Assembly (NCBI GenBank): GCA_965208635.1
Contig: OZ242349.1
Span: 3,852,272 to 3,916,271, forward strand
Length of the DNA: 64,000 nt
Source: Candidatus Poribacteria bacterium
GTDB lineage: Bacteria; Poribacteria; WGA-4E; WGA-3G
Direction of reading: 5' to 3'
Part shown: one piece after another, positions 8,460 through 57,675 of the stretch
Layout of the letters: each line of letters opens with the position of its first letter
Numbering within the stretch: the first letter of the stretch is position 1
Position numbers and translations under genes: made by a program
Notes under the pieces: model-generated
The model's database searches: none
Told to the model about the DNA's origin: nothing
What the model saw: only the letters and a program-made list of their open reading frames with translations

Positions 8460-9932
8460 TTATGCCAGCGGTCGCTGTCGAATCTCGTGCCAAGGACCCG
8501 TAATCGCCAACGTAATTCCGTGGCTCTGAATATTCACAAAAAGCGTTGTACCGTCAGGCGAGAAAGTTGCACCCGCGAGTTCAGACATATTGCCAGCATT
8601 TCGAGCAAATCTATAGAGATGTCCTTCAGGCGTTATCCCAATCAGAAACTCCTCTTCTGGACCGTCTTCGCAAATGATCAAATCGCCCCACGGTGTGACA
8701 GTCAGGTTATCGGCGTTCTCCATGAGATTTCTGTCATTTGGTTCAACGAAAAGTTGAAGCGTACCGGGTTCCTGTTCCTCGCGGCTTGTCCCTTCATAAG
8801 GACTCGGCATGTATTTCCATATCTGCCCTTTGTACGCAATACCGCCATTCGTGCAAGCAATATAGAATTCTCCGTGTTCTTGACTATCGCCGTACCAAAT
8901 CCCTTCACCTCGTGCGAACTTCGCTGCCTCTTTGCCTTCAACACCCTGTATGCGGAGATCGTCGTTCGGTGATTCTACATTCTCAATATCCACCCATTCG
9001 ACTGCGAATGTTTCTCCGATTGGAATCGGGTTGTACGTCCACGGGAAAATCTTCTGCATCCGACTTCGCCAGTTTCGGGTATCCACGCTCTTCATGTCAC
9101 GAATTTTCAGTGCTTGGAGTTTGCCCCCTGCCGCGAGTTCACCCTGCTTATCTGGAATAAACCGATAGATTAAACCATCGCCTCTGTCTTCCGTTTGATA
9201 GACAATCCCAGTTTTGGGATCAACAGCGACTGCCTCATGGTTGAAACGCCCCATCGCTTTCAACGGAATCGGGTCGGCTAATCCTATATCGGTAGAAACC
9301 GGCACCTCAAAATTGTACCCATGGTCCACCTCGTACGTTTCCTCTGCCTTTTGCATGGTTTCTTCACAGGTTATCCATGTGTTCCAAGGCGTGAGACCAC
9401 CGGCACAATTTCGGATCGTCCCGATTAGACTTAGGAAGTGTTTCTCCAGCGTCTTTGTCCGCGTGTCATAGACAAGCGTCGTCGTCCCACCGAGGCAAGG
9501 TAATTCACCCGATCCAGCGTCATATAGTTTGTCAATGGCGGAGCGTTCCAGTTTCTCGTTATTCCATCCAAAAGGTCCGACGTTTTTGGATGGGGCGGTC
9601 AATTCATGATTTCGGACGAGGATGGTTTTGCCGTTGGGACCCGGATAAGCCGCCATACCGTCGTGTCCACCTGGCACCCAAAGCCCATCGTCCATTAGTT
9701 CACCTGTTCTCGAAAAGGCGTGTGCGGTAAATCCTTCGGGGAGGTCAAGCAGACGATTTGGGGTTGACGTGAATTCATAAGGCGGAGGAGGTCTAAAACC
9801 TGGTACCTGTTCAATCAACGCTCGGCTGCACCCTAAAAACCCAAGACTGACTGCTGTAGATGCCGTGGCGAGTGTGCCATAACGTAGAAATTGCCGTCGA
9901 GATAGTTTGTTCTTCATAAGCTCCCTCATCAA
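8460..9932 (-). CDS. PhoX-family (DUF839) phosphatase with Tat signal peptide
   Basis: Twin-arginine leader 'SRRQFLRYGTLATA...GC'. 'NCAGGLTPWNTWITCEE' matches the DUF839/PhoX signature block. 490 aa. Confidence 0.65.
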   Translation of the reverse strand: MMRELMKNKLSRRQFLRYGTLATASTAVSLGFLGCSRALIEQVPGFRPPPPYEFTSTPNRLLDLPEGFTAHAFSRTGELMDDGLWVPGGHDGMAAYPGPNGKTILVRNHELTAPSKNVGPFGWNNEKLERSAIDKLYDAGSGELPCLGGTTTLVYDTRTKTLEKHFLSLIGTIRNCAGGLTPWNTWITCEETMQKAEETYEVDHGYNFEVPVSTDIGLADPIPLKAMGRFNHEAVAVDPKTGIVYQTEDRGDGLIYRFIPDKQGELAAGGKLQALKIRDMKSVDTRNWRSRMQKIFPWTYNPIPIGETFAVEWVDIENVESPNDDLRIQGVEGKEAAKFARGEGIWYGDSQEHGEFYIACTNGGIAYKGQIWKYMPSPYEGTSREEQEPGTLQLFVEPNDRNLMENADNLTVTPWGDLIICEDGPEEEFLIGITPEGHLYRFARNAGNMSELAGATFSPDGTTLFVNIQSHGITLAITGPWHEIRQRPLA

Positions 9933-10115
9933 GTGTTAAAGCGACAATTGAGGTTTTTGGATTGTAAATGGGATGCTTTTTTCACTTGTATAATAAAGTG
10001 TAACACTATTATTTTACAATACTTTTGATTTTTTTTCAAAAGATTGTCGCAAATCGTAAGCCATTATGTTTTTTTCGTTTAGATGTGTTTATAGAAACGT
10101 CTGAGAATAGCCCGC

Positions 10116-10144
10116 TTGACAATGCAGCGAAGTTGTGTTAAAAT
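10116..10144 (+). promoter_or_regulatory. sigma70-like promoter (TTGACA-17-TAAAAT) ahead of the leuS leader
   Basis: Consensus -35 and near-consensus -10 with a 17-nt spacer, about 160 nt upstream of the leuS ATG. The leader carries a family-B repeat. Confidence 0.5.
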
Positions 10145-10220
10145 TTATTCTCATAGAGCCACTATGAATAAGAGGAAAAAATGGAAAACAGAAACCCTAC
10201 AGGGGTCCAAAGTGGACGCC

Positions 10221-10303
10221 GATTCACCGAAAACCTGCCCAAAAAGAAATGGAGGGGTTTTTGCTTGGACATTTCTTTGGTCCAGGAGGCCATAATTTAA
10301 AAT
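10221..10303 (+). repeat. repeat family B copy (degenerate) forming the leuS 5' leader and start context
   Basis: 'gattcaccgaaaacctgccc...aaatggaggggtttttgcttgg...ccaggaggccataatttaaaatATG' shares modules with the copies at 12925, 14473, 17448, 17614, 24621 and 30450. Confidence 0.6.
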
Positions 10304-12924: not shown

Positions 12925-12962
12925 CCATCGTGGAACAATGCCCAGGAGGCCCATAATTAAAA
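12925..12962 (+). repeat. repeat family B start-context module ahead of or overlapping the rnj start
   Basis: 'cccaggaggcccataattaaaaaaTTG' parallels the leuS context 'ccaggaggccataatttaaaatATG'. Confidence 0.5.
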
Positions 12963-14782
12963 AATTGGAATTTGAAGAAATCAAAGGAAACGTTTCGATT
13001 ATCCCATTGGGAGGTTTAGGTGAATTTGGGCTTAACATGATGGTATATGAAACCGAAAATGACATTATCGTCGTTGACACAGGTTTCATGCTACCGAATG
13101 CTGACATGCCCGGTGTCGATCTGATATTACCAGATATCCACTATCTGGTGGAACGACAAGAGAAAATTCGCGGGATCCTTCTAACCCACGGACATGAGGA
13201 TCATATTGGTGCCTTATTCTACGTGCTACGGCAGTTGAATGTGCCGGTCTATGGCACGCAACTCACGCTCGCGATTGCCAGCGGCAGATTGCGCGAATAC
13301 AATGTTCTCAGCAAGGCACAACTCAATACAATTGCTCCAGGCGATACAGTCGAATTGGGTGATTTTTCAGCCGAATTCATCCATGTTACACACAGCATTC
13401 CAGATACAGTGGCAATTGCGCTGCGCACACCGGCCGGTGTTATCGTCCATACAGGCGACTTCAAATTCGACATGACACCTGTTGATGGTAAGTTGAGCGA
13501 CATTCAGACGCTCGCGCGTTTGGGTTCAGAAGGTGTCCTTCTGCTCGTTTCCGACAGCACAAACGCAGAGCGACCCGGACAAACCCCTTCTGAGCGAAGC
13601 ATCTATGGAACGATAGACACTATATTTCAGAAAACGGAACAGAAATTGTTCCTTTGCACCTTTTCTTCGAGTCTACACCGTATCCAACAATTCATTGACT
13701 TGGCAAATATACACCGGCGACTTATCGCTGTCAGCGGTCGTTCTCTCCTCAACAATGTACGTACCGCTTCTGAACTCGGTTACCTCAATCTGAATCCGGA
13801 TTATCTCATTGATGCTCGCGATGCGTCCATGTTCAAACCGCATGAGGTGATGATTTTGAGCACCGGCAGTCAAGGTGAACCCCGCTCTGCCATGTCATTG
13901 ATGGCACTCGACAATCATCCGTTTCTGAAGGTAGAACAAGGTGATACCGTCGTTATCTCTGCAAGGATCATTCCCGGCAATGAGAAAGCGATTGGAAACG
14001 TTGTCAATCATTTGCTCAGACGCGGCGCGAAGATATATCATGAACGCAATGCAAATGTCCACGTATCAGGGCACGGATCAAGCGAAGACCTGAAGTTGAT
14101 GCTCAATCTCCTGAAACCTGAGTTTTTCATGCCGATGCACGGTGAATATCAAAATCTGATGCGGCATGCCGAACTCGCCGAGTCTGTCGGGATACCGAGT
14201 GACAACATTAAAGTCGCTGAAGATGGTGAGCTCATTCAACTTACTTCCGAGACGTGTGAGGTATTGGGACGCGAGGGACGTTCCGGCCGCGTCCTCGTCG
14301 ATGGCAAGCCAGAATTTGAGCTTGAAGATATCGTCCTACGCGACCGTATCCAACTCGCCGAAGACGGCATTCTCGTTCCAATCGTCATCTTGAACAGCGA
14401 TACAGGGGATGAGAATCCAGAGCCAACAGCCAACAGTCAGGAAGATCGCGGGCAGCAATTGGAGGTAACCGTAGCCCATAATGTAATGGAGGGCGGATCT
14501 ACGGAGGACGCCTTTCAAAATTCAGTTCACCTGAACGAACCGCAAGGAAAAATTAGAAAACAGATAGAAATTATTTCGCGTGGATTTGTCTATATGGATA
14601 AATCGGAAGAACTGATAGAGGAAGCAAAAGAAATTACCCTGCGCGTCATTGAGAATCTGAGCGATGAACAGAAACAGGAAACCGAGACCGTCCAAGACGA
14701 GATCCGAGGCGCGCTCCGCCGATTTTTCTCCAAACAGATGCAACGGACACCGCTCATCTTCCCAGTCGTCATGCGGGTTTGA
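12938..14782 (+). CDS. rnj: ribonuclease J (metallo-beta-lactamase/beta-CASP RNase)
   Basis: 'IIPLGGLGEFGLNMMVYE', 'HGHEDHIGA', beta-CASP and C-terminal domain. 614 aa, about 50 aa longer than usual because of a repeat-derived linker insertion. Alternative start TTG at 12963. Confidence 0.9.
   Translation: MPRRPIIKKLEFEEIKGNVSIIPLGGLGEFGLNMMVYETENDIIVVDTGFMLPNADMPGVDLILPDIHYLVERQEKIRGILLTHGHEDHIGALFYVLRQLNVPVYGTQLTLAIASGRLREYNVLSKAQLNTIAPGDTVELGDFSAEFIHVTHSIPDTVAIALRTPAGVIVHTGDFKFDMTPVDGKLSDIQTLARLGSEGVLLLVSDSTNAERPGQTPSERSIYGTIDTIFQKTEQKLFLCTFSSSLHRIQQFIDLANIHRRLIAVSGRSLLNNVRTASELGYLNLNPDYLIDARDASMFKPHEVMILSTGSQGEPRSAMSLMALDNHPFLKVEQGDTVVISARIIPGNEKAIGNVVNHLLRRGAKIYHERNANVHVSGHGSSEDLKLMLNLLKPEFFMPMHGEYQNLMRHAELAESVGIPSDNIKVAEDGELIQLTSETCEVLGREGRSGRVLVDGKPEFELEDIVLRDRIQLAEDGILVPIVILNSDTGDENPEPTANSQEDRGQQLEVTVAHNVMEGGSTEDAFQNSVHLNEPQGKIRKQIEIISRGFVYMDKSEELIEEAKEITLRVIENLSDEQKQETETVQDEIRGALRRFFSKQMQRTPLIFPVVMRV
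14473..14560 (+). repeat. repeat family B copy inserted in-frame in the rnj linker
   Basis: 'gcccataatgtaatggagggcggatctacggagg...ttcagttcacctgaacgaaccgcaaggaaaaatta' matches the terminal modules of the intergenic copy at 17448-17559. It encodes 'AHNVMEGGSTEDAFQNSVHLNEPQGKIRKQ'. Confidence 0.7.
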
Positions 14783-14811: not shown

Positions 14812-15960
14812 TTGAAATTATTCACATGTATCCTGGCAATTGCCACTTTGATAATAGGTTTCTCCGCCTGTGAGCGAGCGTCACAAATTATCCAACCTAC
14901 TACATCCCAGACAGAGGATAAGGGCAATGAGATTGCCATCGGAGTCGTTTTACCTTTGACAGGACACTTGGCTTCTGCAGGCGAACTCATGAAACAGGGT
15001 CTTGACCTTGCCCTCGATGAAATTAACAACGCACAACCCAGTGGTCCAAAATTCAAGTTCATCGTTGAGGATGACACCAGTACCCCGGAGGGCGCGGTTG
15101 ACGCTTTCAACAAACTGATTCACCAATACGGCCTGTCTGTGATTCTCGGTCCCGCGTCTTCAACTGCGACCCAAGCGGCTTTCCCAATCGCACAAGAAAA
15201 CCAGGTCGTAGCAATTAGTCCCACAGCCGGTGCCCGCGATCTTGGCGCAATTGGAGAGTTCGTCTTTCGTGTCCCGCTCGCGTCAAATATCCTGGCACTT
15301 AAAGGTGTCGAAGCAACACATGCGAAACTCAGCTATCAACGGGTCGCTACTATCTATGACGAAACCGATCTCTTCTCGACAGATAGAGACGAGGCGTTGC
15401 AGGAAGCCTTCACCGCGATCGGTGTTGAGATCCTAACCACGGAAGTTTTCCAGAGCGGTGATACCGACTTCTCGACACAACTAACGCAGATAAAGGCATT
15501 GGATCCGGATGCTATTTTTGTCTCGTCCTTGCCCCCCGAAAAACCAGGGATACTGATTCAAGCGCACGAACTCGGTATATCCGTTCCTGTTATTATGAGT
15601 TCGCTAACCGGTGTTGAGGTAGAAGCCGCGGGTGTCGCCGCCGAAGGCGCAATAACCTTTATCGGTTGGCTCCCTACAGATGACACACCGGGAAATCAAG
15701 TTTTTGTAGCAAATTATAGCGAGACTTACGGCATGATCCCAAACGTCTTTGCCACAGCATCGTATGCCTCCGTCTATATTTTAGCAGAGGCGATTAAGAA
15801 TGCCGAGTCAACCAATGCAATCTCAATCCGAGGCGCACTTGCAAATATCAACGACTTTGACACGGTTTTCGGCAAGTTCTCTTTTAATGCCGACGGGGAC
15901 GCCGTTTATGAACAGAAGGCTCTGATAGTAAAAGACGGCACATTGCAACCCTTTGAGTAA
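14812..15960 (+). CDS. ABC transporter substrate-binding lipoprotein, branched-chain amino acid (LivK/LivJ-like, PBP type 1)
   Basis: Lipoprotein signal '...IIGFSAC'. 'IGVVLPLTGHLASAGELMKQGLDLALDEIN' is typical of Leu/Ile/Val-binding proteins. TTG start. Confidence 0.7.
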   Translation: MKLFTCILAIATLIIGFSACERASQIIQPTTSQTEDKGNEIAIGVVLPLTGHLASAGELMKQGLDLALDEINNAQPSGPKFKFIVEDDTSTPEGAVDAFNKLIHQYGLSVILGPASSTATQAAFPIAQENQVVAISPTAGARDLGAIGEFVFRVPLASNILALKGVEATHAKLSYQRVATIYDETDLFSTDRDEALQEAFTAIGVEILTTEVFQSGDTDFSTQLTQIKALDPDAIFVSSLPPEKPGILIQAHELGISVPVIMSSLTGVEVEAAGVAAEGAITFIGWLPTDDTPGNQVFVANYSETYGMIPNVFATASYASVYILAEAIKNAESTNAISIRGALANINDFDTVFGKFSFNADGDAVYEQKALIVKDGTLQPFE

Positions 15961-16028
15961 TTTTGTTCGATAGTTTCACGGCACATTTAGAAATTTCAGA
16001 TTTAATTTATTGAGAGAGTACAAGAAGT

Positions 16029-17432
16029 ATGAAAACACAAACAATGTATGAAAAGATATGGGAGGCGCATCTCGTTCGCGCCGCCGCAGGCGAGGTCCCA
16101 ATCCTCTATATCGACACGCACCTCGTCCACGAAGTTACATCTCCGCAGGCGTTTGAGGGGTTAAGGCTCAATAACCGAAAAGTCCGCCGTCCGGATCTGA
16201 CGTTCGCCACGATGGATCACAACGTCCCGACAACGGATAGGTCACTGCCCATCACCGATCTGATTGCCGCGAAGCAGATGGAAACACTCGCGCAAAACTG
16301 CACCGAGTTTGACATCCCGCTCTACGACATTGACAGCCCTGAGCAAGGCATCGTGCATGTCATCGGACCCGAACTCGGCATCACGTTGCCCGGTAAGACC
16401 CTTGTTTGTGGGGATAGCCACACCTCAACACACGGGGCACTCGGTGCCCTCGCTTTCGGCATCGGTACAAGCGAGATTGAGCATGTTCTCGCCACGCAAT
16501 GTCTCCTGCAACAGGAATCAGAAACCTTCGAGATTCGGATTGACGGCACGCTCCCTTACGGCGTAACCGCAAAAGACATTATCCTCTCTATTATCGGACA
16601 TATCGGTATTGATGGCGGGAACGGTGCTGTTGTTGAGTACACAGGCTCCGCTATTCGCGCCCTCAACATTGAGGAACGGATGACGGTTTGCAATATGTCC
16701 ATTGAGGCAGGAGCACGTGCCGGTATGATCGCTCCTGATGACACCACTTATGAGTACATCGCTGGCAGACGTTTCGCACCGAAAGATAAAAAGTTTGATG
16801 CCGCTGTTGAACGCTGGAAGCAGCTTCCCACTGATGACGGAGCGACCTATGATCGAACCTTGCAACTTGATGCCGCAGAAATCGCACCGCAGGTGACATG
16901 GGGCACAAATCCGGGTATGGTGACCGACGTAACAGGGCGCGTTCCAGATCCCACGGACATGGTAACAGTCGACGAAAAGACTGCTACCGAACACGCCTTG
17001 GAATATATGGATCTCACACCCGGCACACCCATCACAGATATTGCCGTAGATAGAGTTTTCATCGGCAGTTGCACCAACTCCCGTATCAGCGATCTACGAG
17101 TTGCTGCAGAAGTCGCAAAGGGCAGGAAAGTCGCAGACACTGTCAGTGCGATGGTCGTTCCCGGATCGCAGGCTGTTAAACGTCAAGCGGAGGCGGAAGG
17201 GCTCGACGAGATTTTCCGTGCCGCAGGCTTTGAGTGGCGTGAAGCCGGTTGTAGCATGTGCCTCGGTATGAATCCCGATATCCTGATGCCGGGTCAACGT
17301 TGCGCCAGCACATCGAACCGGAATTTTGAAGGCAGACAGGGCAAAGGCGGACGCACGCACTTAGTAAGTCCACAGATGGCGGCTGCAACTGCCGTAACGG
17401 GACACTTCGTGGATATCCGAACCTTCGGATAG
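16029..17432 (+). CDS. leuC: 3-isopropylmalate dehydratase large subunit
   Basis: '[10 protein letters not shown]', '[22 protein letters not shown]' and the aconitase-family Cys ligands 'GSCTNSR' and 'CSMCLGMN'. 467 aa. Confidence 0.95.
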
Positions 17433-17447
17433 GTTCTTGAGCAGTTT

Positions 17448-17559
17448 CAGCAGCCCGTAATGTAATGGAGGGGTTTTTGCTTCGGTGTTTCCTCTAGATA
17501 TACGAGAAGTCACACTAAGACTTCAGATTCACCTGACCGAACCGCAAGGTTTTTAATTT
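17448..17559 (+). repeat. repeat family B copy (full length, ~110 bp) in the leuC-leuD spacer
   Basis: 'gcccgtaatgtaatggaggggtttttgcttcgg...ttcagattcacctgaccgaaccgcaaggtttttaatttATG'. Confidence 0.75.
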
Positions 17560-17613
17560 ATGAGTTTATTAACGCTCCGCTTACGCTGTATTTTTTTTCA
17601 GGTTCCTAAATCG

Positions 17614-17702
17614 GCAGCCTGCAACACCGGCGCAGGCGGGTCTACGGAAAAGAAAGTGAAGCGATCAACCTACCTGACCGAACCGCAAGGAATAATTAAA
17701 AT
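17614..17702 (+). repeat. repeat family B copy (variant with gcctgcaacaNcggcgcaggcgg palindrome) abutting the leuD start
   Basis: 'cagcctgcaacaccggcgcaggcgggtctacgga...tacctgaccgaaccgcaaggaataattaaaatATG'. Confidence 0.75.
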
Positions 17703-18293
17703 ATGGAAGCATTCAAAGAACACGTGGGACGCGTTGTCCCACTCGACCGGATTAATGTTGACACCGACCAGATTATCCCAAAGCAATTTCTGAAACGGAT
17801 CGAACGAACCGGTTTCGGTGAATTTCTCTTTAACGACTGGCGCTACCTTGAGAGTGGCGATCCGAACCCGGAATTCGTACTGAATCTCCCACGCTACGCA
17901 GGGGCAAGTATCCTCATCGCAGGCGTGAATTTCGGATGTGGCAGCTCGCGCGAGCACGCCCCGTGGGCACTCCAACAATACGGCTTCAAAGCAATTCTCG
18001 CGCCCTCGTTTGCCGATATTTTCCGCAACAATTGCTACAAGAACGGCATTCTCCCGATTGCTCTGCCTGCAGATATTATTACTTCGCTCAGTCAAGAGAC
18101 ACACGCCACCGAGGGCTACCAATTGATGATAGACTTGGAGGAGCAATCGGTCATCTGTTCTGATGGCACCGCCCACACCTTTGAAATCGGTGATTTTGAG
18201 AAATACTGCCTGCTGAACGGACTTGACGAAATCGGCTGGACCTTGCAGTATGAAGCAGACATTGCGGCGTATGAAAATCAGCATGCTTCATAG
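17703..18293 (+). CDS. leuD: 3-isopropylmalate dehydratase small subunit
   Basis: '[20 protein letters not shown]' and '[17 protein letters not shown]' are LeuD signatures. 196 aa. Confidence 0.92.
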
Positions 18294-19247: not shown

Positions 19248-19292
19248 TTATGTGTTGACCCAAATTGAGAATCTCAAAATGAGCGGAGGAGG

Positions 19293-19410
19293 GGTTATCA
19301 GTTATCGGTCTTCAGTTAAAAGAGGGATCTTATTGAACCAAATCCTCTCTTAACCGACAACCGAAAGGTTTGCGGAGCAAACCGTACTGACAACCGACAA
19401 CCATTTTTTT
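19293..19410. repeat. repeat family C cluster (gttatcagtt / cagttaaaagaggg / ttaaccgacaaccgaaagg + hairpin ggtttgc-gga-gcaaacc)
   Basis: Modules are shared with 2757-2781, 12865-12884, 24594-24620, 34066-34109 and 39535-39572. Confidence 0.6.
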
Positions 19411-23895: not shown

Positions 23896-24581
23896 AAGTT
23901 GCTTAGACTAACCAATCCAAAATATAGGAGTTGCGCAAAATAGCAGTGAAAAGCGATTCGCGGCAATTGTTGACGAAACAGGCCGACTTGAAAACCGATT
24001 GTCGCGAAGATGAAACTTAATCCAAACCACACCAGATAGTTCCGTAAAGGGATATGGTCGTTCATCCATGTCCAGTAATCCAGTTTCGCTGCCGCCGGTT
24101 CCATAAGCAGATCGAAGCAGACCATTAACAAAGCCACCAGAAATGCTATTTTGAAACGGAAACCTTCTGCTAAAAATTTCGGGATAATCTTCTGAGCAAC
24201 AGCAGTCGAGGCAACGAGCATCACAAACCAAGCAGACCCAATACTGATTGGAACACCACCAATCGATGGTCGCAAGGTCTGTCCATACGAGTATGAACCG
24301 AAAATCTCACCTGTCCGAACACCGAGCCATTCAATCCCAAAACTGACGACAACGATCCCTATACTTGCGATGGCAAACTTCGATCGTTCATGTTGTGGAG
24401 ACTCCCACCAGCATTCCCAAAATAGCCATACGCCCAAACCAATCATGATTGGCGAAGCGAGAACTTGCATGACTTCTTGGAACACACCGAGCACATGCCA
24501 CAAGCCACCCGCGCCTAAAAGTAGATAAAGCGCCCCTATTTTAAGTTTCTTAATTTTGCCTTGTCGTTCGGTTAGGTCCAT
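23892..24581 (-). CDS. polytopic membrane protein, candidate carotenoid 1',2'-hydratase (CruF-like)
   Basis: 229-aa integral membrane protein inside the crt operon, ATGA-coupled to crtW. The assignment is contextual, by analogy with salinixanthin/myxol clusters. Confidence 0.35.
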   Translation of the reverse strand: MDLTERQGKIKKLKIGALYLLLGAGGLWHVLGVFQEVMQVLASPIMIGLGVWLFWECWWESPQHERSKFAIASIGIVVVSFGIEWLGVRTGEIFGSYSYGQTLRPSIGGVPISIGSAWFVMLVASTAVAQKIIPKFLAEGFRFKIAFLVALLMVCFDLLMEPAAAKLDYWTWMNDHIPLRNYLVWFGLSFIFATIGFQVGLFRQQLPRIAFHCYFAQLLYFGLVSLSNL

Positions 24582-24620
24582 TGGGTAAATAACGTCTTAA
24601 CTGAAAACAAAAAACGCCTA

Positions 24621-24710
24621 AGCGCGTAGCCTGCAACAACGGCGCAGGCGGATCTACGGAGAGGCATCTGAAATTACCAATCCCTCTCATCGAACCGCAA
24701 GGTATAATTA
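24621..24710. repeat. repeat family B copy between the GT2 stop and the CruF-like start, inside the operon
   Basis: 'aagcgcgtagcctgcaacaacggcgcaggcggatctacggag...catcgaaccgcaaggtataattaaa' overlaps the GT2 stop codon (24708-24710). Confidence 0.75.
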
Positions 24711-25814
24711 AAGAATCTGTCGTCCCTTCCACTGCAGACGACCGCGTCTGACTTGGTAAAATGAATTAACACCAATCAGCAAAGTCAATAAAACGCCAAA
24801 GGGATGTAAAATTACGCTTGTAACGAAGGGGTGCCTATATTTGAGTGCCAGCACCATCCGCATAACGATGTTCATAACGATAGCAACGATTGCCAATCCT
24901 CTAAGCGTCGCAAACCAGACAGTAATGTACGGTAGCACACACATTGTAAACAGACCGAGCATTAAAATAAAAAACGGTATCATTTTGTAGCGGACCAATC
25001 CAAAAAGGTTTTTGGAAAATCCGTTCCAGACCTCGCTGAACGAATGATACATCCGGCAAGATACCACACACGTTCCCGCCGATGTCAAGATTTTGATACC
25101 TCTCTTTTTCGCCAATCGGCTGAGTTCAACGTCTTCAACAATCTGATTTGATACCGCTTGATGCCCACCGACCCGTTGGTATGCCTCGCGAGTAAAGGCA
25201 ATCCAGAGACCGCTCGCCGCCGCAAGCGACGGGAAACGACTAAAGTAGGTAAGCCATAACGGAAGTCCGGCATAAACGAACAGGTCCACTACCGGAACGA
25301 CGAGTTTTTCTGCCAAGGTGCCAGTCACTTTCTCTGGAAACGCCGAGAGCAAGCCGAGTTCCAACTTCTGCATGTAAGCAACAGTGTTTGCAATCGCGTT
25401 CGGGGCAGGACGGTTATCCGCATCCGTGAAAATGAGTATTTCTCCATCTGCGTGTTGGCTCAGTTGGTGGCACGCCCAGTTTTTTCCAGTCCAGCCTGCT
25501 GGCAACGGTTTACCTTGAATCGCCTGAACTGCAGGATACTGTTCGCCGAATTTTTCAATAATCGTACCCGTGCGATCCGTCGATTGGTCATTGAGAACGT
25601 GAATTTCAAAGTTATCGTAGTTTTGAGACAGGAATCCGTTGATACAGGCACCGATGTTAGTTTCTTCATTACGCGCCGGGATCAGCACCGAGACGCGTGG
25701 ATAGTTCTGGAGACCAACGAATTTCTTCAGCATCGGCGCAGTCACAGTATTAAACAGCGCGACTGCTAAAATAACCGCCAACAGAACTATCGAAATAAGC
25801 ATCAGGATAAACAA
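24708..25814 (-). CDS. family-2 glycosyltransferase (CruC-like carotenoid glycosyltransferase candidate)
   Basis: 'VSVLIPARNEETNIGACINGFLSQNYDNFEIHVLNDQSTDRT' GT2 DxD region, with C-terminal TM helices. 368 aa. Confidence 0.65.
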   Translation of the reverse strand: MFILMLISIVLLAVILAVALFNTVTAPMLKKFVGLQNYPRVSVLIPARNEETNIGACINGFLSQNYDNFEIHVLNDQSTDRTGTIIEKFGEQYPAVQAIQGKPLPAGWTGKNWACHQLSQHADGEILIFTDADNRPAPNAIANTVAYMQKLELGLLSAFPEKVTGTLAEKLVVPVVDLFVYAGLPLWLTYFSRFPSLAAASGLWIAFTREAYQRVGGHQAVSNQIVEDVELSRLAKKRGIKILTSAGTCVVSCRMYHSFSEVWNGFSKNLFGLVRYKMIPFFILMLGLFTMCVLPYITVWFATLRGLAIVAIVMNIVMRMVLALKYRHPFVTSVILHPFGVLLTLLIGVNSFYQVRRGRLQWKGRQIL

Positions 25815-30449: not shown

Positions 30450-30545
30450 ATTTTTAATTGTTCCTGAAGACTCGCGCAATTCCTTACAGGCTACGCGCTT
30501 TAGTTTACCCAAGACAGCAGCCTGCAACATCGGCGCAGGGTTTTT
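30450..30545 (-). repeat. repeat family B copy (minus orientation) supplying the crtD-like start context
   Basis: 'cagcctgcaacatcggcgcagggtttttgcaatgtaat...' is followed on the minus strand by 'ggaacaattaaaaaATG'. 'ggctacgcgctt' is the inverse of 24620-24631. Confidence 0.6.
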
Positions 30546-30684
30546 GCAATGTAATACATTGTCCCGCAAGTCCACACGTTGTCCTCGGATGCCACACGCG
30601 CATCCGTTCTGGTGCTACGGATTTCGTCTATCCCCAGACGAAATCCGGTGTTTCTTCAAGATTTGAGAAACGCACGCAACAGTT

Positions 30685-31377
30685 CTAACGCCCGTTGTTT
30701 CTCCGCAAGGTAAAATTAAAAACTTTTTCGTAGAACATTGCGTTAAAGAGCATCAATGTAAATCCGTATCCGAAATCCTCAATGGGAATTGTCAAAATTC
30801 GGTAACCCATCTGATGCGCCTCACCATATAAAACCACAGGTCGCGCCGTGAGATAACTGTTGAATATCAGAATTAAACCAAAAACAATTCCAATATAGAT
30901 ATAGGTCTTCAGTTGCATAAGCAACTCGGTCCGTAGCAACGTGTCTGTCAGTCCAACAAGCCCAACACAAATCAGAACCAATCCTGTGTACTGCTTACCC
31001 GTGCTGAAAACCCATACACCGATCGGCAGTGCTACGTATAAAACTGTTCTGACATGCCGAAGAGGTCTCAATCGTGTTGATAGTTTCGCATCCGACAATG
31101 TTTCCCATACCAACAGACATCCATAAGGGGCAGTGATGAAAAAGAACCATTCTCCAATCGGCAAACCGAGCAATCGGAAGTCAAGCGTATACGTCTCGTT
31201 GAACCACCAATGTGAACCAGTGACAAGGATGTCCCATATAATATACGGGATCATGACGAACACCGTCGTGAGCAATTTCAATCGCCAATGTGATATATGC
31301 CTAATTTGCTGGTTGAATTGCGATACTACCGGTCCAACGACCACAATGAGATTAAACAAGAGGTATTCAAATTGCAT
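30685..31377 (-). CDS. lycopene cyclase, fused CrtYc/CrtYd-domain type
   Basis: Two halves each with a PxE(E/D)xxF motif ('LPIGEWFFF', 'IPIEDFGYGF'). 7 TM helices. 230 aa. Confidence 0.65.
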   Translation of the reverse strand: MQFEYLLFNLIVVVGPVVSQFNQQIRHISHWRLKLLTTVFVMIPYIIWDILVTGSHWWFNETYTLDFRLLGLPIGEWFFFITAPYGCLLVWETLSDAKLSTRLRPLRHVRTVLYVALPIGVWVFSTGKQYTGLVLICVGLVGLTDTLLRTELLMQLKTYIYIGIVFGLILIFNSYLTARPVVLYGEAHQMGYRILTIPIEDFGYGFTLMLFNAMFYEKVFNFTLRRNNGR

Positions 31378-33978: not shown

Positions 33979-34092
33979 CGGAGAGACTACCTTGGTTCAA
34001 ATTGCCAGTTCTCGATCATCGAACAAGAGTTGTGTGGTAACAGAAACGACTTCGTTACGCTCGCGTCTTTAACCAATAACTGATAACCGAAA

Positions 34093-34109
34093 GGATTTCG
34101 CAGAAATCC
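34093..34109. terminator. small hairpin ggatttc-gca-gaaatcc in a family-C repeat between convergent genes
   Basis: 7-bp stem located between the carH-like stop (33978) and the GH29-like stop (34135). Confidence 0.3.
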
Positions 34110-34134
34110 ATACCGAGAACCATTCTGCCAATGA

Positions 34135-39506: not shown

Positions 39507-39576
39507 GGACCAAAAACATCCGTAAAATGATAATCTCTTAACTGAAAACCGATAACTGAAAACTGATAACCATCCT

Positions 39577-42500
39577 TCACCTCAAAATATCCTCGGGTCC
39601 ATGGGATTCTGTGAAGGTTGTCCAGATACCTGTGCGTTTATCGTAACGGCTCAATCCACGATAGGTTCCGAACCAGACGAACGGACTATCTACAGCCATC
39701 GAAAGGATACCGTTATGTGCTAAGCCGTCCTCTCGGGTGTAAGTCGTCCAACTATTCGTCAACTGATCAAACCGACTGACCCCAGCATTGTAGGTGCCAA
39801 TCCAGACTTCAGTGCCATCAACACCTATAGAGGTAACTTTGTTGCTGGCAAGTCCATCTGCTGTCGTATAGTCAGCCCAAACCTCTGTCTTTTCGTTGTA
39901 GAGTGTCACACCGCGGTCGCTGCCAAACCAGACATTGTCGCCAGCAATCACGATACAACTCACTTCATCACTCGCAAGTCCATCTTCCACTGTTATCGTC
40001 TTCCAGATATCCCGACCGATGTCATATTGACTGACACCCCTGCGTGTCCCGACCCAGACGTGTTTCTTACTTGCCGTGATACACCAAATTTGATCGGTAA
40101 CCAACGATTCAGCAAACTCTTTAGACACAGCAGAAGGCTGGATTTCAGTGCCCGATGTGTAGGTAATCCATGCATTGCGATCATCCGCTGTGCGGGGGTA
40201 CTTTCCGATCCCAGAATTAGTGCCAACCCAGATACTATCGGCATCGCTACTCACAGAAGTTATATTGTTGGCGGGCAGTCCATGCTCAGTTTTGTACTGA
40301 TCCCACCGCAGGGCTATCTTATCAAAGCGATTCGCCCCGTCGCGTGTCCCAACCCAGACGTATTGGTCATCGACCATAATAGAACTCACAACGTCATCGG
40401 AGAGGCAGTCTTTCTTTTTCCGTCTATGTCGGTGCCAGTGCCCTCCATGGGTTTCTATGTTTTCGGAGCCACCTTCCTGCCGATAATTCTTCCATGTCCC
40501 CAGGATCTTGTCGTAGCGTGACATACCTTTATCCGTACCGACCCAGACGAAACGCTCATCTGTATCTACCGTCCGAATAGTGCGTCCAACGAGGGTCGGT
40601 AGTGCCGTCAACGGGGTCCAAGATTCTTTCTGTTTGTCATAACGGGAAAGTCCACGCAACGTACCCACCCATACATAGTCCTCATCCACTGCGAGCCCAT
40701 ACTCACCCACATGGTTATGGAGCAGCCCTTTGATATCTCTAAACCTTGCCCAAGTCCCAGAGGCAAAATGAAAGCGTCGAAGCCCATCGTTGGGGGCAGC
40801 TAACCACAGATAATCGTCATCGGCTGCCAGCTCAAGCGTTCCACGTCCGGATCTGATCGTCGTCCATTCCTTTGTGCGCCTGTCGTATCGGGTAACACCT
40901 GCATCCTCCCAAGGTCTGTAGAGTATCCATACATCTTTTTCTGTAGCGATAATACGTCTAATCGTCCTTGAAGCCAGCACGTCATTCGTCGAAAATGTCG
41001 TCCATTTCTTTGTCTTTTTATCGTATCGCGACAACGGACGGTTGCTATCTCTATCCCATTCCGAGCGCGCAACCCAGATGAAATCATCATCTACAGTAAT
41101 CCACTCCGCGCCTCTGCCTGCCAATCCGTCTCTCGGTCCAAAATCTTTCCATTCACCCGTGATTTCATTGTACTGAGTCAGGGTCCGCCCGGATCCAAAC
41201 CAGACGTTCGGTCCATCGACCCCAAGTGCATTCAATCGCTCAATCTGAGTCCCTTCATCAGGAGCGACCACATCCCATGTCCCAGTCGCTTTACTATAAT
41301 GGCTCAATTCCAAACCTATCATCGGGATGACCCAAACACTCTGTTCACTCACAGCAATCTTGTCTACATCGTTTGTAGAAAGACCATCCTCTGTCGTAAA
41401 ATGTTGCCATGTATCCGAAGTTTTATCGTAACGGAGAACCCCATAGTCCGTTGTGAACCAGACTGCATCCGTGTCAATATGCGTCCAACGGATAAGTGTC
41501 ATGGCTCTTTTCTGCGTAGACTGCAGAATGTCTACGCGCGTGAAACGCCGCCATGTCTCTGTTGAACGATGAAACCGGACAAGAGCACCGTTCGGCGAAG
41601 CCCCCCAGCTATTGAGCCAGATGTAATCCCCATCAAACTTGATGTTTGAGACCAATGTTTCAAGGAACGGCTCCCGTACCGGCCGAGATTGATGTAGAAC
41701 CTCTCTTCCATTTTGTGAGTCATATTCGACGAGTCCTGTATCTGTCGCCAACCAAAGTGTTCCGTCTGCATCACACAGAATGTCGCGAATGTTATACGGC
41801 ACATTTGAGAGAGAATTCCAAGAATCAGAAGCAATCGTGTAACTTCCCAGTCCCTGTGGTGTGCCGATCCAGAGAATCCCATCTTGAAAGGCAAGTGCGG
41901 TGACATTCGGCGACGGCAATTGGTCATTAAAGGACAGTGGGACCCAACGCTGACGGGTCTTGTCATATCTTGCAAGACCGCGGCGTGTTCCCGCCCAAAG
42001 TGTCTGTTCTCGGGGATCGGTTTGTAACTCTGAATCAGTGGAAAGTAGCACATTAACGTACGGATTCGGAAGACCATCGGCAACACGGTGCATCTGCTTA
42101 TCGACGATTGCGTATTGCAAAACACCTTCCGCGCCGCCAAACCAGACTTTCTCATCGTGAGCAAGCACGGCTAATATAAGCGGATTTTTCGGCGTGTCCG
42201 GTGGTGTCAGTTGTGTCCATTCCTGCGCTGTTGTATCGTACACGGCAGGACCGAAACTTGTACCAACCCAGACCCGGTGATTCTGTGATGCAGTGCCAGT
42301 ATCAACTGATGTCACAAAAGCTTCGCCTTGTGTCTGTGTTCGAGGTGGGACATGAAATGTCCACTCTTCCTCTAAATATGCTCGCGTGCCAAGCCCTCGA
42401 TCGCTCCCAATCCAGACCTGGGCATCGCCATTGTTTAGGATTTCGTCAGTGGTGTCCTGTTCCGATTCAGAAGGTTGAGACGTAAAATTGATTGACGTAA

Positions 42501-43851
42501 TATAGGGAGTCGGCAGCCCATCTTCCTTGGAAATGATTTCCCAGTTACGTGTTTGAGGAGAGTAAACCGAAATTCCGGCAACTGTTGCTAACCAAAGGTT
42601 TCCATCGGGATCACGTGTTAGATAGCGAACATCGTTATCGGCGAGAAAATCGGCTTGTTTATATATTGTCCACTCGCCGCTCACTTTATCAAATCGGCTC
42701 ACACCATCCTCTTTGCTCGCAAACCAGACATCATTACCTTGTGTGGTAATCCAACTGATATGATTACTCGCCAATCCATCTGCCTTGGTATAATGCACCC
42801 ATGTGTTGACAGGCTTAATGAATCGATGGACACCCGCATTGGCAGTTCCGAACCAGACCTGGAACCCATCTGCACGAATACAGGAGATAATATTGCTTTT
42901 CAACAGATCTGTTTTCGTATATGTTTTGATGAACGTCTGGTCAACTTGATTGTACTGACTGACACCCTCCTTCTGCGTGCCAAACCAAACACTATCGTCG
43001 TCCACCGCAATCGTAGCGATTTCGCTGTCTATCAAACCATCTGATTTCGTATAGTTATTCCAAGAATCGGTGTCTCGATGGTAACGACTTACCCCACCTC
43101 TGCTGAACCTCGGATCTTCATCCCATCCATGTGGATCTGGGTTTATTTCTCTACCGGTGCCGACCCAAACATACTCCGGCTCAACGGCGATGGTTGTAAT
43201 TACTTTGCTGACTAAGCCGTCCTTCCGGGTACGCACCGCCCAACTGTCAATCGTTTTATCGTAACGATTCAATCCCTCGGATGTCCCAAACCACACGTAG
43301 TTCCCGTCCACCGCAATTGAGGAAACTTGGTCACTTGCTAATCCATCGATGGTTCGGAAGGTCGTAAAAGTGTTTGTTTGCATATCGTAGCGGCTTACAC
43401 CTTCATCCGTGGCAAACCAGACCCATTGCCCATCAACCGCGACGGCATTCACCATATCGTTCGACAACCCATCTTCCATCGTATAATGGATCCATTTATC
43501 CTGCTGGCGGTCCCAGCGAGAAACACCCCGCGCCGTTGCAATCCATACATTGTCTAAATCTGCTGCAATACAATTGACCTCGTTGCTGACGAGCGTTCGT
43601 TCTATGGGCCACGCCTTCGCAAGCTCCGTGCCTGTTTTGGAGCCATCATGAGGAAGACCAGATTGTGGATCGCTGGTTACCAATGGACCGCACCCGACAA
43701 TCATAAAGAAGGGCAGCAGTAAGGTACATGCTATTGAAGCAACGCACAAAGGTTGGCATTTGAATTCAGCAATCCAAGACTTACTTCTATCTGCTCGCTT
43801 CATTGTTTCCACCGTTTCCCTTTCACCCAAGTGTGAATCTCGCAATCTCAA
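39577..43851 (-). CDS. giant lipoprotein made of ~25 two-component-regulator-propeller (Y_Y_Y/Reg_prop) repeats, with no kinase or output domain
   Basis: Lipobox 'MIVGCG'. Reiterated 'VW(I/F)GT..G(L/V)SRYD..T..W' blades throughout. Lys/His-rich insert 'HGGHWHRHRRKKKD'. 1424 aa. Confidence 0.6.
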   Translation of the reverse strand: MRLRDSHLGERETVETMKRADRSKSWIAEFKCQPLCVASIACTLLLPFFMIVGCGPLVTSDPQSGLPHDGSKTGTELAKAWPIERTLVSNEVNCIAADLDNVWIATARGVSRWDRQQDKWIHYTMEDGLSNDMVNAVAVDGQWVWFATDEGVSRYDMQTNTFTTFRTIDGLASDQVSSIAVDGNYVWFGTSEGLNRYDKTIDSWAVRTRKDGLVSKVITTIAVEPEYVWVGTGREINPDPHGWDEDPRFSRGGVSRYHRDTDSWNNYTKSDGLIDSEIATIAVDDDSVWFGTQKEGVSQYNQVDQTFIKTYTKTDLLKSNIISCIRADGFQVWFGTANAGVHRFIKPVNTWVHYTKADGLASNHISWITTQGNDVWFASKEDGVSRFDKVSGEWTIYKQADFLADNDVRYLTRDPDGNLWLATVAGISVYSPQTRNWEIISKEDGLPTPYITSINFTSQPSESEQDTTDEILNNGDAQVWIGSDRGLGTRAYLEEEWTFHVPPRTQTQGEAFVTSVDTGTASQNHRVWVGTSFGPAVYDTTAQEWTQLTPPDTPKNPLILAVLAHDEKVWFGGAEGVLQYAIVDKQMHRVADGLPNPYVNVLLSTDSELQTDPREQTLWAGTRRGLARYDKTRQRWVPLSFNDQLPSPNVTALAFQDGILWIGTPQGLGSYTIASDSWNSLSNVPYNIRDILCDADGTLWLATDTGLVEYDSQNGREVLHQSRPVREPFLETLVSNIKFDGDYIWLNSWGASPNGALVRFHRSTETWRRFTRVDILQSTQKRAMTLIRWTHIDTDAVWFTTDYGVLRYDKTSDTWQHFTTEDGLSTNDVDKIAVSEQSVWVIPMIGLELSHYSKATGTWDVVAPDEGTQIERLNALGVDGPNVWFGSGRTLTQYNEITGEWKDFGPRDGLAGRGAEWITVDDDFIWVARSEWDRDSNRPLSRYDKKTKKWTTFSTNDVLASRTIRRIIATEKDVWILYRPWEDAGVTRYDRRTKEWTTIRSGRGTLELAADDDYLWLAAPNDGLRRFHFASGTWARFRDIKGLLHNHVGEYGLAVDEDYVWVGTLRGLSRYDKQKESWTPLTALPTLVGRTIRTVDTDERFVWVGTDKGMSRYDKILGTWKNYRQEGGSENIETHGGHWHRHRRKKKDCLSDDVVSSIMVDDQYVWVGTRDGANRFDKIALRWDQYKTEHGLPANNITSVSSDADSIWVGTNSGIGKYPRTADDRNAWITYTSGTEIQPSAVSKEFAESLVTDQIWCITASKKHVWVGTRRGVSQYDIGRDIWKTITVEDGLASDEVSCIVIAGDNVWFGSDRGVTLYNEKTEVWADYTTADGLASNKVTSIGVDGTEVWIGTYNAGVSRFDQLTNSWTTYTREDGLAHNGILSMAVDSPFVWFGTYRGLSRYDKRTGIWTTFTESHGPEDILR

Positions 43852-44201
43852 GACTGTTTTCGTTAGTTTGTATTATTATGCCATTAAAACACTGCATAAG
43901 CAAGAAAAGCGTAATTACAGTCGCGCACATTCATTTTCAATTATCGTGATTCGGAGATCGTTTTATGAATTGTTATTGTTGCTGATCTTTACATGAAACG
44001 CTATACAGGTATCTATAACTATGTGACGTATATTATTGGAGCACCCCTTAAAAAAGTTACACAAATTTGACGTCGCCTCTAAGCAATTTTGGAATATCTG
44101 CCCATTAAAAGTATTTGACAAAAATCCCCAAATGCCCTACAGTGGACCCCAAAAGAGAGAACGAGTACTTTAAACTGACTACACCGATGGAGATATTCAT
44201 C

Positions 44202-50082: not shown

Positions 50083-50285
50083 TGAGATGCCGCTATTTGT
50101 GCTTCAAACGCGGTGTAGTCTTTCCGATTGCCAGTAATGGTGTCATATCCTTCTGGAATATCAGCCCCAGTCTGTCCGCGGTTGTAGAGCGTCACAGCGT
50201 CGCCACGCGCAATAAGGGCACGAGTAATCGCCGTGCTAATCAACCCTGTACCACCAATAATCAAAACCCGCATGAATATCTCCAA
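50052..50285 (-). pseudogene. N-terminal remnant of an NAD-dependent epimerase/dehydratase (truncated after ~65 aa)
   Basis: 'MRVLIIGGTGLISTAITRALIARGDAVTLYNRGQ' is a canonical Rossmann N-terminus. The frame degenerates and stops at 77 aa. It overlaps the neighbouring gene. Confidence 0.5.
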
Positions 50286-50445
50286 CCCGTTTGAGAATAA
50301 AATTTCTTTCTATGGCTCAGTATACTTGGAAATATGGCGAATGTCAATCCGAAAATCGTCTTCAGGACTTGCAAAATCATTGCGGGGTGCTATAATGTTA
50401 TTTTTAAAAAAGAAATTCGCGACAACGCGTCCAGAGGAGGAACAC

Positions 50446-54888: not shown

Positions 54889-55000
54889 TTCACGCAGGCG
54901 ACTTCTCCTCAACCCGCAAAATGCTCATTCGGAAATGAGACAGTTTGACGGAGTTGTCCCGCCCCCGACTGATAAGCAAAAATCGCGTTTCAAATAGATA
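54889..55000 (+). repeat. ~105-bp intergenic repeat copy R1 (contains hairpin ctcatt-cgga-aatgag)
   Basis: About 80% identical to 57567-57675. Shared core 'cacgcaggcga...caacccgcaaaatgctcattcggaaatgag..gtttga.gg...cgactgataagcaaa'. Confidence 0.8.
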
Positions 55001-57566: not shown

Positions 57567-57675
57567 TTCACGCAGGCGATCCGCAACCCGCAAAATGCTC
57601 ATTCGGAAATGAGGCGGTTTGATGGCATCATAAATCTCTCGACTGATAAGCAAAGAAATACGCTTCAATTTGATT
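57567..57675 (+). repeat. ~105-bp intergenic repeat copy R2, bounded by an 11-bp direct repeat caatttgattg
   Basis: Homologous to 54889-55000. 'caatttgattg' occurs at 57550-57560 and 57666-57676. Confidence 0.8.

Follow-up and report, generated by a model that had tools for sequence, protein, structure and literature searches.

A modular interspersed repeat of Poribacteria that probably carries a portable ribosome-binding site

Introduction

A stretch of 64,000 nucleotides from Candidatus Poribacteria bacterium (assembly GCA_965208635.1, contig OZ242349.1, positions 3,852,272 to 3,916,271; hereafter the window) contains copies of a modular repeat family of about 90 bases, the last 20 of which resemble a ribosome-binding site. 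The family is apparently undescribed; searches of the literature on repeats in Poribacteria returned nothing relevant. Poribacteria are uncultivated sponge symbionts, and their gene-expression signals are known from sequence alone. We consider it probable that the family is a Poribacteria-specific, modular interspersed DNA repeat with a portable Shine-Dalgarno (SD) sequence and spacer, which replaces the native start signals of genes.

The unit consists of a GTA-tagged hairpin head, for which two versions can stand in for each other, a middle with nearly neutral drift, the invariant CCGCAAGG and an A/T-rich tail. According to the mechanism proposed here, the gain and loss of copies, their tandem duplication and their remodelling by single modules would all take place in the DNA, driven by an insertion mechanism, by copies recombining or converting one another, or by both. 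AAGG and the roughly 12 A/T-rich bases after it, at the 3′ end, would act as a portable SD sequence plus spacer. Wherever a copy ends right before an NTG codon, the ribosome would take the SD sequence of the repeat; the native SD sequence, and even the native start codon, would then be dispensable and could be lost. We infer that the element is mobile rather than recombined only.

Results

The anatomy of the unit was read from 96 distinct canonical copies (alignment A1, 97 columns). The canonical unit measures 85-90 nt, and units with inserts reach about 200 nt. Its order is nGTA, head, CGG, about 45 variable bases, CCGCAAGG and tail. Head C, GCCTGCAACAnCGGCGCAGG, forms a 6-bp stem with a 9-nt loop, and some copies carry the alternative head A, GCCCGTAAyGwArTGGAGGG. 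In the head consensus nGTA-GCCTGC-N9-GCAGGC the A is conserved in at least 90% of the copies, the G never varies, and pairing in the 6-bp stem amounts to 99%. GCC..GG of the head and CCGCAAGG are invariant, while the middle varies, with two or more types distinguishable by sequence: ATATACGGAAAGG...CACCTGACCGAA and ATTTGAGGAACG...CGTTGTTCCT. The tail follows the consensus (T/A)A(T/A)AATTAAAA(A). An optional module B, GTTTTTGC(T)TGGGTGTTTCCCCTAGAT, stands after the head in zero to about three copies per unit and may hold nested inserts of its own. Copies can also follow one another head to tail in tandem, the period being 85-284 nt (for example in L012, L015 and L029); elsewhere the tail is duplicated, or an inverted A-type copy stands head to head with a direct C-type one.

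Species-representative genomes were scanned with the exact 19-base head-C pattern, the unit of count being an 8-kb block. The initial annotation had left it open that the copies might be confined to the window; at least 114 blocks matched, and at least 109 of them belong to Candidatus Poribacteria, from at least 26 species-level assemblies. The five non-poribacterial blocks among the matches listed are GC-rich DNA without any other module and are regarded as chance matches. Poribacterial blocks are scattered round complete chromosomes, with OZ244804.1 alone giving 17 among the matches listed. The family is thus real, well beyond chance expectation, and specific to the phylum Poribacteria as far as sampled. 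Among the same listed matches, a tail follows 114 of 132 heads in the poribacterial blocks, and copies other than the block-selecting one have a density of about 0.05 per kb for heads and 0.14 per kb for tails. Extrapolated very roughly to a genome of 5.5 Mb, this gives a few hundred heads and several hundred tails, to be read as an order of magnitude only because the block sample is clustered and biased. The window belongs to the same phylum by its RNase J and LeuD proteins, which are 91-93% identical to poribacterial proteins. Carriage of the element by phages was considered as well and rejected, the viral contigs searched having given three chance matches only.

The tail end lies within 3 nt of the start of a long open reading frame (ORF) in 55 of 125 head-bearing copies (44%, in sense orientation), compared with 5.7% of 5,000 random positions, a positional bias toward gene starts of the kind that the initial annotation had proposed to check. 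A start codon within 10 nt of the tail end was present in 58 copies (ATG in 51, TTG in 5, GTG in 2), and about 10 further copies show a duplicated tail followed by ATG. When solo tails are included, 101 distinct ORFs of at least 100 amino acids start at a tail. Their products match 146 Pfam families, of which ABC_tran is the commonest with 8 members, and the genes served are ordinary and diverse: LeuD, GatB, CarA, Nuo subunits, transporters and sulfatases. The start codon itself is not part of the element, as seen from non-genic and tandem copies without a following ATG. Copies also occur antisense to genes, in tandem arrays and within coding sequence.

At native starts without the element (about 1 Mb of poribacterial DNA), the sequence is G-rich at -13 to -8 and pairs with the AAGGAGG template at an aligned spacing of mostly 5-9 nt. 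Of 46 starts served by the element, 35 show an aligned spacing of 9 nt. The purine block had initially been judged too far from the start for a good SD interaction; this value is among the longest in the native range, yet inside it. Several unrelated genes of the window looked similar upstream of their starts, and the tail was therefore considered as a general start context of the genome. This possibility was rejected: among 344 native SD-led starts, ATTAAA was present at 4.6% and an A-run at 12.5%. We infer that the AAGG of the tail serves as SD sequence, and the supply of translation starts by the repeat appears well supported by the comparison with relatives described below.

In several loci (L005, L073, L013, L049, L063, L075 and L110) the tail frame CCG CAA GGn is open into the downstream gene. 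For a TrpB-like gene of L005 and L073, a label taken from the N-terminal sequence only, the element itself contains the sole in-frame ATG in the vicinity (MKSQVHPSEPQGIIKK-LPDATGHFG...), and part of the repeat appears to be translated there as an N-terminal extension.

The replacement of native start signals is seen where close relatives with and without a copy can be compared. The rnj regions of five relatives (L195, L196, L197, L202 and L203), with RNase J proteins 88-91% identical to that of the window, were used for this purpose, together with a metagenome scan for LeuD in which L115 and L116 were the close relatives (92-93% identity) among 80 loci and L117 was more distant (73%).

Upstream of leuS, all five relatives have a conserved promoter, TTGACA-N17-TA(A/G)AAT, and a native SD leader, '...aaaaaggagacgaacgcgaaATG'. 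The window has kept the promoter; about 108 extra bases, ending with CCAGGAGGCCATAATTTAAAAT right before the same ATG, follow it, and this insert was found in the window alone. The promoter, at 10116-10144 (TTGACA, 17 nt, TAAAAT), is of the sigma-70 type. It is kept in all five relatives, and the phylum therefore uses standard promoter hexamers.

The rnj gene of L195, L196 and L203 opens with ATG ACA GAA GAT TTA GAA TTT GAA and starts 12 nt earlier than that of the window, at ATGACAGAAGAT. L202 has a full canonical copy, the tail of which adjoins the same TTG as in the window (TTG GAA TTT GAA). In the window a tail remnant lies at the same point as in L202; the original ATG and three codons are lost, and the former Leu5 codon is the start (TTG). 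Lengths of 609 and 605 amino acids among RNase J homologues agree with the two types of start.

The spacer between leuC and leuD measures 25 nt in L195 and 24 nt in a more distant relative, and holds one head-A copy in L196. The window has a copy orthologous to that of L196 with module B in addition, then 51 nt, then a second copy with head C (alignment A2), which is missing from L195 and L196. The initial reading of the spacer, 17433-17702, as two tandem copies was correct, two direct copies being read there; the 51-nt stretch between them is not a repeated module. The ATG of leuD is the same in all relatives compared, and in the relatives a native SD sequence precedes it. As judged from the aligned loci, the repeat has displaced the native SD sequence at leuS, rnj and leuD and, at rnj, the start codon as well, and the claim that it supplies the start contexts of several genes holds for these three.

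Other DNA was also found at the leuC-leuD junction. L115, L116, L197 and L202 have a VapBC-type pair (DUF2281 and PIN), and L203 has a HicAB-type pair formed by a HicB-like antitoxin ORF and an adjacent uncalled HicA-like frame. The junction is an insertion hot spot: some genomes have a toxin-antitoxin pair there, others a single repeat copy or two, and others nothing. Nearby, in the interval from a periplasmic-binding-protein gene to leuC, L195 (13267-17046) and L196 (13162-16935) carry a large N6_Mtase/Eco57I-type restriction-modification gene, and L196 also has a gene for a REP-associated tyrosine transposase (RAYT; REP, repetitive extragenic palindrome) and a DDE transposase. The window (15960-16029) has none of the three, and the neighbourhood is therefore highly plastic.

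A further copy of the window (14471-14560) lies within rnj and not upstream of a gene. It is stop-free and in frame, as are repeats inserted in protein genes elsewhere, and forms part of an insertion of about 50 amino acids relative to RNase J1 of B. subtilis (3zq4). The linker copy is common to the closest relatives, L196 and its kin being without a 27-nt head; more distant Poribacteria have other repeat-derived low-complexity linkers in RNase J, and the linker is polymorphic among 120 poribacterial sequences. In the carotenoid cluster, two genes that overlap without a spacer in L203 flank the copy at 24625-24715, which provides the stop codon of the upstream gene in the window: the stop codon, 24708-24710, falls in the reverse complement of the tail. 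The next gene of the cluster starts inside a decayed sense copy (24548-24596), which encodes its N-terminus, MDLTERQGKIKK; the gene is carotenoid-synthase-like, an identity taken from synteny with L203.

The copies of the window are compiled in Table 1. A whole-window search for repeats recovered the families noted initially (D5, D9, D10, D11 and D18), and the modules were searched against the expectation from shuffled sequence. The pattern GCCTGCAACANCGGCGCAGG (19 specified bases) was exact at 17617, 24629 and 30520 (0 expected), CGAACCGCAAGG was present at 14536, 17538, 17679 and 24691 (0.28 expected), and the head-A motif CCCATAATGTAATGGAGGG at 14475, at 17454 and, if 3 mismatches are allowed, at 10238 (0 expected). 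A profile hidden Markov model built from the 96 copies, all found outside the window, was run on the window with nhmmer. It matched 14471-14558, 17497-17550, 17614-17701, 24626-24712 and, as a split match, 30517-30544 and 30661-30722, and it revealed an extra partial minus-strand copy at 24596-24548.

Of the seven sites that had been proposed, the modules are thus present at their coordinates beyond chance, but three sites need correction. Two of them, 10221-10303 and 12925-12962, hold inserted repeat-derived sequence as judged from the relatives, but are diverged or reduced to a tail, below detection by the profile; they carry the variant tail CCAGGAGGCC(C)ATAATT(T)AAAA. The third, 30450-30545, had been taken for a minus-strand copy but is part of one long plus-strand copy, 30517-30722; what stands of the minus-strand copy is the 20-nt tail-like sequence before the crtD-like ATG.

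Table 1. Copies and remnants of the repeat in the window
Feature	Position	Strand	Remarks
Insert in the leuS 5′ untranslated region (5′UTR), diverged composite copy	10196..10303	+	Absent from L195, L196, L197, L202 and L203
Parts of the leuS copy	head-A-like 10236-10256; module B from 10257; variant tail 10282-10303	+	Variant tail CCAGGAGGCCATAATTTAAAAT
Tail-only remnant CCCAGGAGGCCCATAATTAAAAAA at rnj	12941..12964	+	Adjoins rnj TTG start at 12965
Complete head-A copy within rnj	14471..14560	+	Translated as VAHNVMEGGSTEDAFQNSVHLNEPQGKIRKQ, linker before the C-terminal domain
leuC-leuD copy 1	17450..17559	+	Orthologous to the single L196 copy, which is without module B (A2)
leuC-leuD copy 2, canonical head-C	17613..17702	+	Profile E = 1e-19; tail CCGCAAGGAATAATTAAAAT adjoins leuD ATG at 17703
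Partial copy (middle and tail)	24548..24596	-	nhmmer E = 0.0013; holds ATG at 24581
Canonical head-C copy between two minus-strand carotenoid-cluster genes	24625..24715	+ (antisense)	E = 1e-22
Long head-C copy	30517..30722	+	Head 30520-30539, module B from 30540, nested insert of about 110 nt, type-2 middle
Tail-like sequence CTTCAGGAACAATTAAAAAT	30450..30469	-	Directly upstream of crtD-like ATG (30449); too short for statistical support alone

The tail of the leuS copy adjoins the leuS ATG at 10304, and its 5′ boundary is uncertain by about 12 nt. Copy 1 of the leuC-leuD spacer reads GCAG, head A (17454-17472), module B (17473-17499), middle, CCGCAAGG (17542-17549) and TTTTTAATTT. The long copy at 30517-30722 has CCGCAAGG at 30703-30710, ends its tail at 30722 and encloses the stop codon of the minus-strand ORF 30685-31377. 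A 77-codon ORF (17560-17793) begins immediately behind copy 1 and continues across copy 2, in the frame in which rnj translates the repeat (EPQG...), and it overlaps leuD in a different frame; that it is a gene is improbable.

Discussion

Which parts of the unit are under constraint was measured on nine orthologous pairs, both members of which have a copy at the same start codon. CCGCAAGG was identical at 24 of 24 positions and the tail at 32 of 36, while the middle was 66% identical and indistinguishable from the third codon positions of the adjacent gene (62%). Head C and head A were exchanged in two orthologous pairs (L048/L089 and L083/L103). The search for conserved RNA structure that the initial annotation had recommended yielded the head hairpin and no covariation. 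RNAalifold on all copies retained this hairpin alone, minimum-free-energy z-scores of single copies averaged about -1 on both strands, and the best candidate for a further helix, in the type-2 middle, was 76.5% paired compared with 76.1% in column shuffles. Rfam scans, at the gathering threshold and with E up to 10, gave no relevant match. A conserved structured RNA was rejected on these grounds: the ends of the element are conserved and its body drifts.

An unlikely alternative to the portable SD sequence is a shared cis-regulatory 5′ leader, acting as RNA or DNA, in which a trans-acting protein or small RNA would read the head hairpin and/or CCGCAAGG beside the SD sequence; hundreds of genes would be co-regulated, and the spread of copies would be secondary. 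Such a leader would account for the invariance of the head and of CCGCAAGG in 96 copies, drawn from many species, in which the middle drifts, and for the place of the leuS element in the 5′UTR, downstream of a conserved promoter. The core CAAGGA also resembles a GGA-type site of RNA-binding proteins, as in CsrA sites. The 101 proteins with their 146 Pfam families, however, present no functional theme, and most tails read AAGGT and not AAGGA. Antisense copies, tandem arrays and copies inside coding sequence fit a leader poorly, as do the weak folding and the middle helix without covariation. A precedent is REP2, for which co-regulation of contact-induced genes has been proposed (Delihas 2011, PMC3184786).

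The heads invite a comparison with REPs. RAYTs are the enzymes that mobilise REPs tagged with GTAG and the bacterial interspersed mosaic elements (BIMEs) that such REPs form (Nunvar 2010, PMC2817692; Bertels and Rainey 2011, PMC3116915; Di Nocera 2013, PMC3733652). The poribacterial heads could be REPs of this type, the whole being a mosaic similar to a BIME or REPIN that is moved in trans by a RAYT, with the ribosome-binding tail as an accessory; we regard this as decidedly unlikely. The likeness is real in that GTA and a G precede a hairpin with a 6-bp stem in most copies, modules are assembled as a mosaic, two head types exist that at times form inverted head-to-head A/C pairs, and REPs inside genes are already known. 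Poribacteria also encode RAYTs: the one of L196 (18083-18556) scores 122 bits to NF047646 (cut-off 80), and 192 homologues were found. The five RAYT loci inspected, from several clades (L196, L198, L199, L200 and L201; a non-exhaustive sample), are, however, flanked by other GTAG or GTGG REPs (GTAGGTTCGGTT..., GTAGGAGGGAACTCCGATTCCCGAC, GTGGGAGAGGAATCC..., GTAGGAGGGCTTTGTAAGCCCGAT and GTAGGAGCGATCTCCCGATCGCGAC) and never by head C or A, and no RAYT gene was present in about 0.9 Mb surrounding head-C copies. An association of the heads with RAYTs was rejected for this reason. The palindrome with an unpaired GTAG tag that characterises REPs is found in the head only; the poribacterial unit adds a non-palindromic body of about 65 nt ending in an SD sequence, and most copies are single. 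REPs lie mostly downstream of genes, with frequent inverted dimers, whereas the present copies lie upstream of starts, and of 154 heads no more than 15 are accompanied by an inverted partner within 200 nt.

The same 15 cases bear on a transposable element of the miniature inverted-repeat kind (MITE), a candidate suggested by the resemblance of 30450-30469 to an inverted tail. All of the inverted tails within 200 nt of a head belong to whole inverted neighbours, and terminal inverted repeats between the head and tail ends of the unit are missing; the candidate was rejected. Classical REP/RAYT systems are a separate feature of Poribacteria (L196 17840-18620; L198-L201), with at least five different GTAG REP sequences, some in long arrays. 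A REP of the classical type, GTAGGTTGGGTT..., is present in the leuS-rnj spacer of L195 and L196.

The tail could also be read as the -10 box of a promoter for leaderless mRNAs or mRNAs with a very short leader, with TATAAT at -12 to -7 in GGTATAATTAAAAA-ATG. It does fit (T/A)A(T/A)AAT, the A at position 2 of the hexamer being invariant and the T at position 6 conserved in at least 90%, and the box stands 5-7 nt from the ATG. We consider this reading very improbable. A -35 element at 16-18 nt is lacking, and a scan of the element with the promoter consensus gave a single hit, in copy 2 of the leuC-leuD spacer, where the -10 hexamer lies misplaced, directly against the ATG, and transcription would start inside the gene. 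The TATAAT-like box noted initially is thus present in the tail, but nothing in the scan supports promoter activity. The genome uses TTGACA-N17-TAAAAT, such a promoter, the gene's own, precedes the leuS copy by about 50-160 nt, and the copies at leuD and rnj are intra-operonic. The invariance of AAGG and the SD-led native genes also speak against a leaderless promoter.

It is hardly credible that no mobility is involved at all and that ancient, vertically inherited start regions have become alike by convergence on an optimal ribosome-binding site: orthologous copies do persist between species, and the tails are A/T-rich and SD-like, but more than 60 nt of head and middle are shared outside the SD sequence, native starts are without the tail motif, copies occur in coding sequence, antisense and in arrays, and presence differs between genomes with about 90% identical RNase J, as the filled and empty sites show.

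Several points weigh against the preferred reading of a mobile repeat with a portable SD sequence. A mobilising enzyme was not found, RAYTs having been looked for at the five loci and in the 0.9 Mb round head-C copies, and neither terminal inverted repeats nor target-site duplications were seen at the filled and empty sites of leuS, rnj and leuC-leuD. The sample of copies was chosen by the exact head-C pattern, with counts taken from among the matches listed. The peak at start codons is sharper than random insertion followed by selection easily gives, because insertions further upstream in the 5′UTR should be tolerated too; targeting or secondary deletion must be assumed. A role as SD sequence leaves the invariance of CCGC and of the 20-nt head across species unexplained, which hints at recognition by a protein.

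The piling of 3′ ends at start codons suggests either a targeting of initiation regions or a rapid loss of the DNA that separates the tail from the native SD sequence, and the arrangements of tail, tail and ATG could be intermediates of such deletions. Orthologous copies differ by module (module B present or absent, heads swapped), and junctions fall inside CCGCAAGG/AAGGA, which argues for recombination or gene conversion between copies as at least part of the dynamics. Given that the 3′ ends pile up at start codons and that the head and CCGC are conserved beyond the needs of an SD sequence, two bolder possibilities arise, which we hold to be doubtful: the element might be a 'translation-start cassette', mobile and with initiation regions as the specific target of its homing or recombination, which survives as the ribosome-binding site of its host gene, or the head and CCGCAAGG might be the handle of a trans-acting factor that exerts phylum-wide post-transcriptional control over hundreds of unrelated genes.

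By comparison with known systems, we place the element among interspersed repeats carrying a ribosome-binding site, as a new variant that is a member of none of the families compared; its likeness to REP2 is drawn from the published description of that repeat. REP2 of Neisseria and the IR-A/IR-B elements of Borrelia plasmids have no terminal inverted repeats, carry two 5′ stem-loops and a ribosome-binding site, and lie immediately upstream of ORFs, in the 5′UTR (Delihas 2011, PMC3184786). REP2 measures 120-150 bp, occurs in 23-26 copies per genome and has a reported promoter and ATG inside (PMC3184786). The poribacterial unit similarly is without terminal inverted repeats, has a 5′ stem-loop and an end resembling a ribosome-binding site, and lies immediately upstream of ORFs. 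In contrast to REP2, it is 85-90 nt long, has no recognisable promoter and leaves the start codon outside; it is found in at least 26 assemblies with roughly a few hundred copies per genome, and shows interchangeable heads, optional modules and copies inside coding sequence. The in-frame copy in an essential gene (the rnj linker) and the N-terminal extensions recall the Rickettsia palindromic elements (cited in Delihas 2011, PMC3184786), although coding copies are a minority in the poribacterial family and the element is not a long palindrome.

Module B (GTTTTTGCTTGGGTGTTTC...), internal and variable in number from 0 to about 3, gives the unit a likeness to BOX elements without any relation in sequence. 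BOX elements of Streptococcus pneumoniae are modular as well (boxA-boxB(n)-boxC); they are not known to provide the SD sequence of a downstream gene. The leuC-leuD copies, oriented with the genes at a stop/start junction, resemble the mycobacterial interspersed repetitive units (MIRUs). These short repeats lie in intercistronic spacers of operons, oriented with the genes at the stop/start junction, and are believed to act via small ORFs overlapping the neighbouring stop and start codons. Unlike in MIRUs, no coupling ORF is evident in the leuC-leuD spacer, the 77-codon ORF at 17560 being out of frame.

If the preferred reading is correct, a sizeable share of poribacterial start codons would be served by one repeated cassette and not by gene-specific signals, and the few repeats known to bear a ribosome-binding site, so far Neisseria REP2 and Borrelia IR, would form a class extended to another phylum, to a much higher copy number and to a greater evolutionary depth. 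Gene callers would be affected, as TTG starts, additional stop codons and extended N-termini arise from the repeat. The copies at leuS, rnj and leuD would represent a natural experiment in which selfish or repeated DNA enters essential gene expression, and the compact, conserved ribosome-binding module would be a candidate tool or regulatory handle.

Additional observations

Short units in tandem, for example GTTATCAGTTATCGG / CAGTCAGCCATCAG, build up another interspersed family; in many cases AAAGAGnTTTTC...CCAAAnCCGTA comes next, with a head behind it. It was found in the window at 19280-19323 and 39534-39584, in L197 at 9688-10000 and upstream of heads at many loci (among them L113, L072 and L025). 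DNA similar to these tandem units in the RNase J linker of other Poribacteria may account for low-complexity stretches of the QPSAVSDQQ type.

A 45-nt repeat pair at 19351-19395 and 34077-34121 (TAACCGACAACCGAAAGGTTTGCGGAGCAAACCGTACTGACAACC) is 78% identical and may be related to the GTTATCGG-type family on the other strand. Two 75-nt direct repeats (TCCTCAACCCGCAAAATGCTCATTCGGAAATGAG...), at 54906-54980 and 57580-57654, are 81% identical, 2.7 kb apart and unrelated to the family studied here. Protein-level repeats every 123-126 nt or so (families D1-D4) occur in the very large ORFs 39577-43872 (minus strand) and 50188-53262 (plus strand); in the latter the repeat is DGGxxW-like and reminiscent of BNR/Asp-box propeller proteins.

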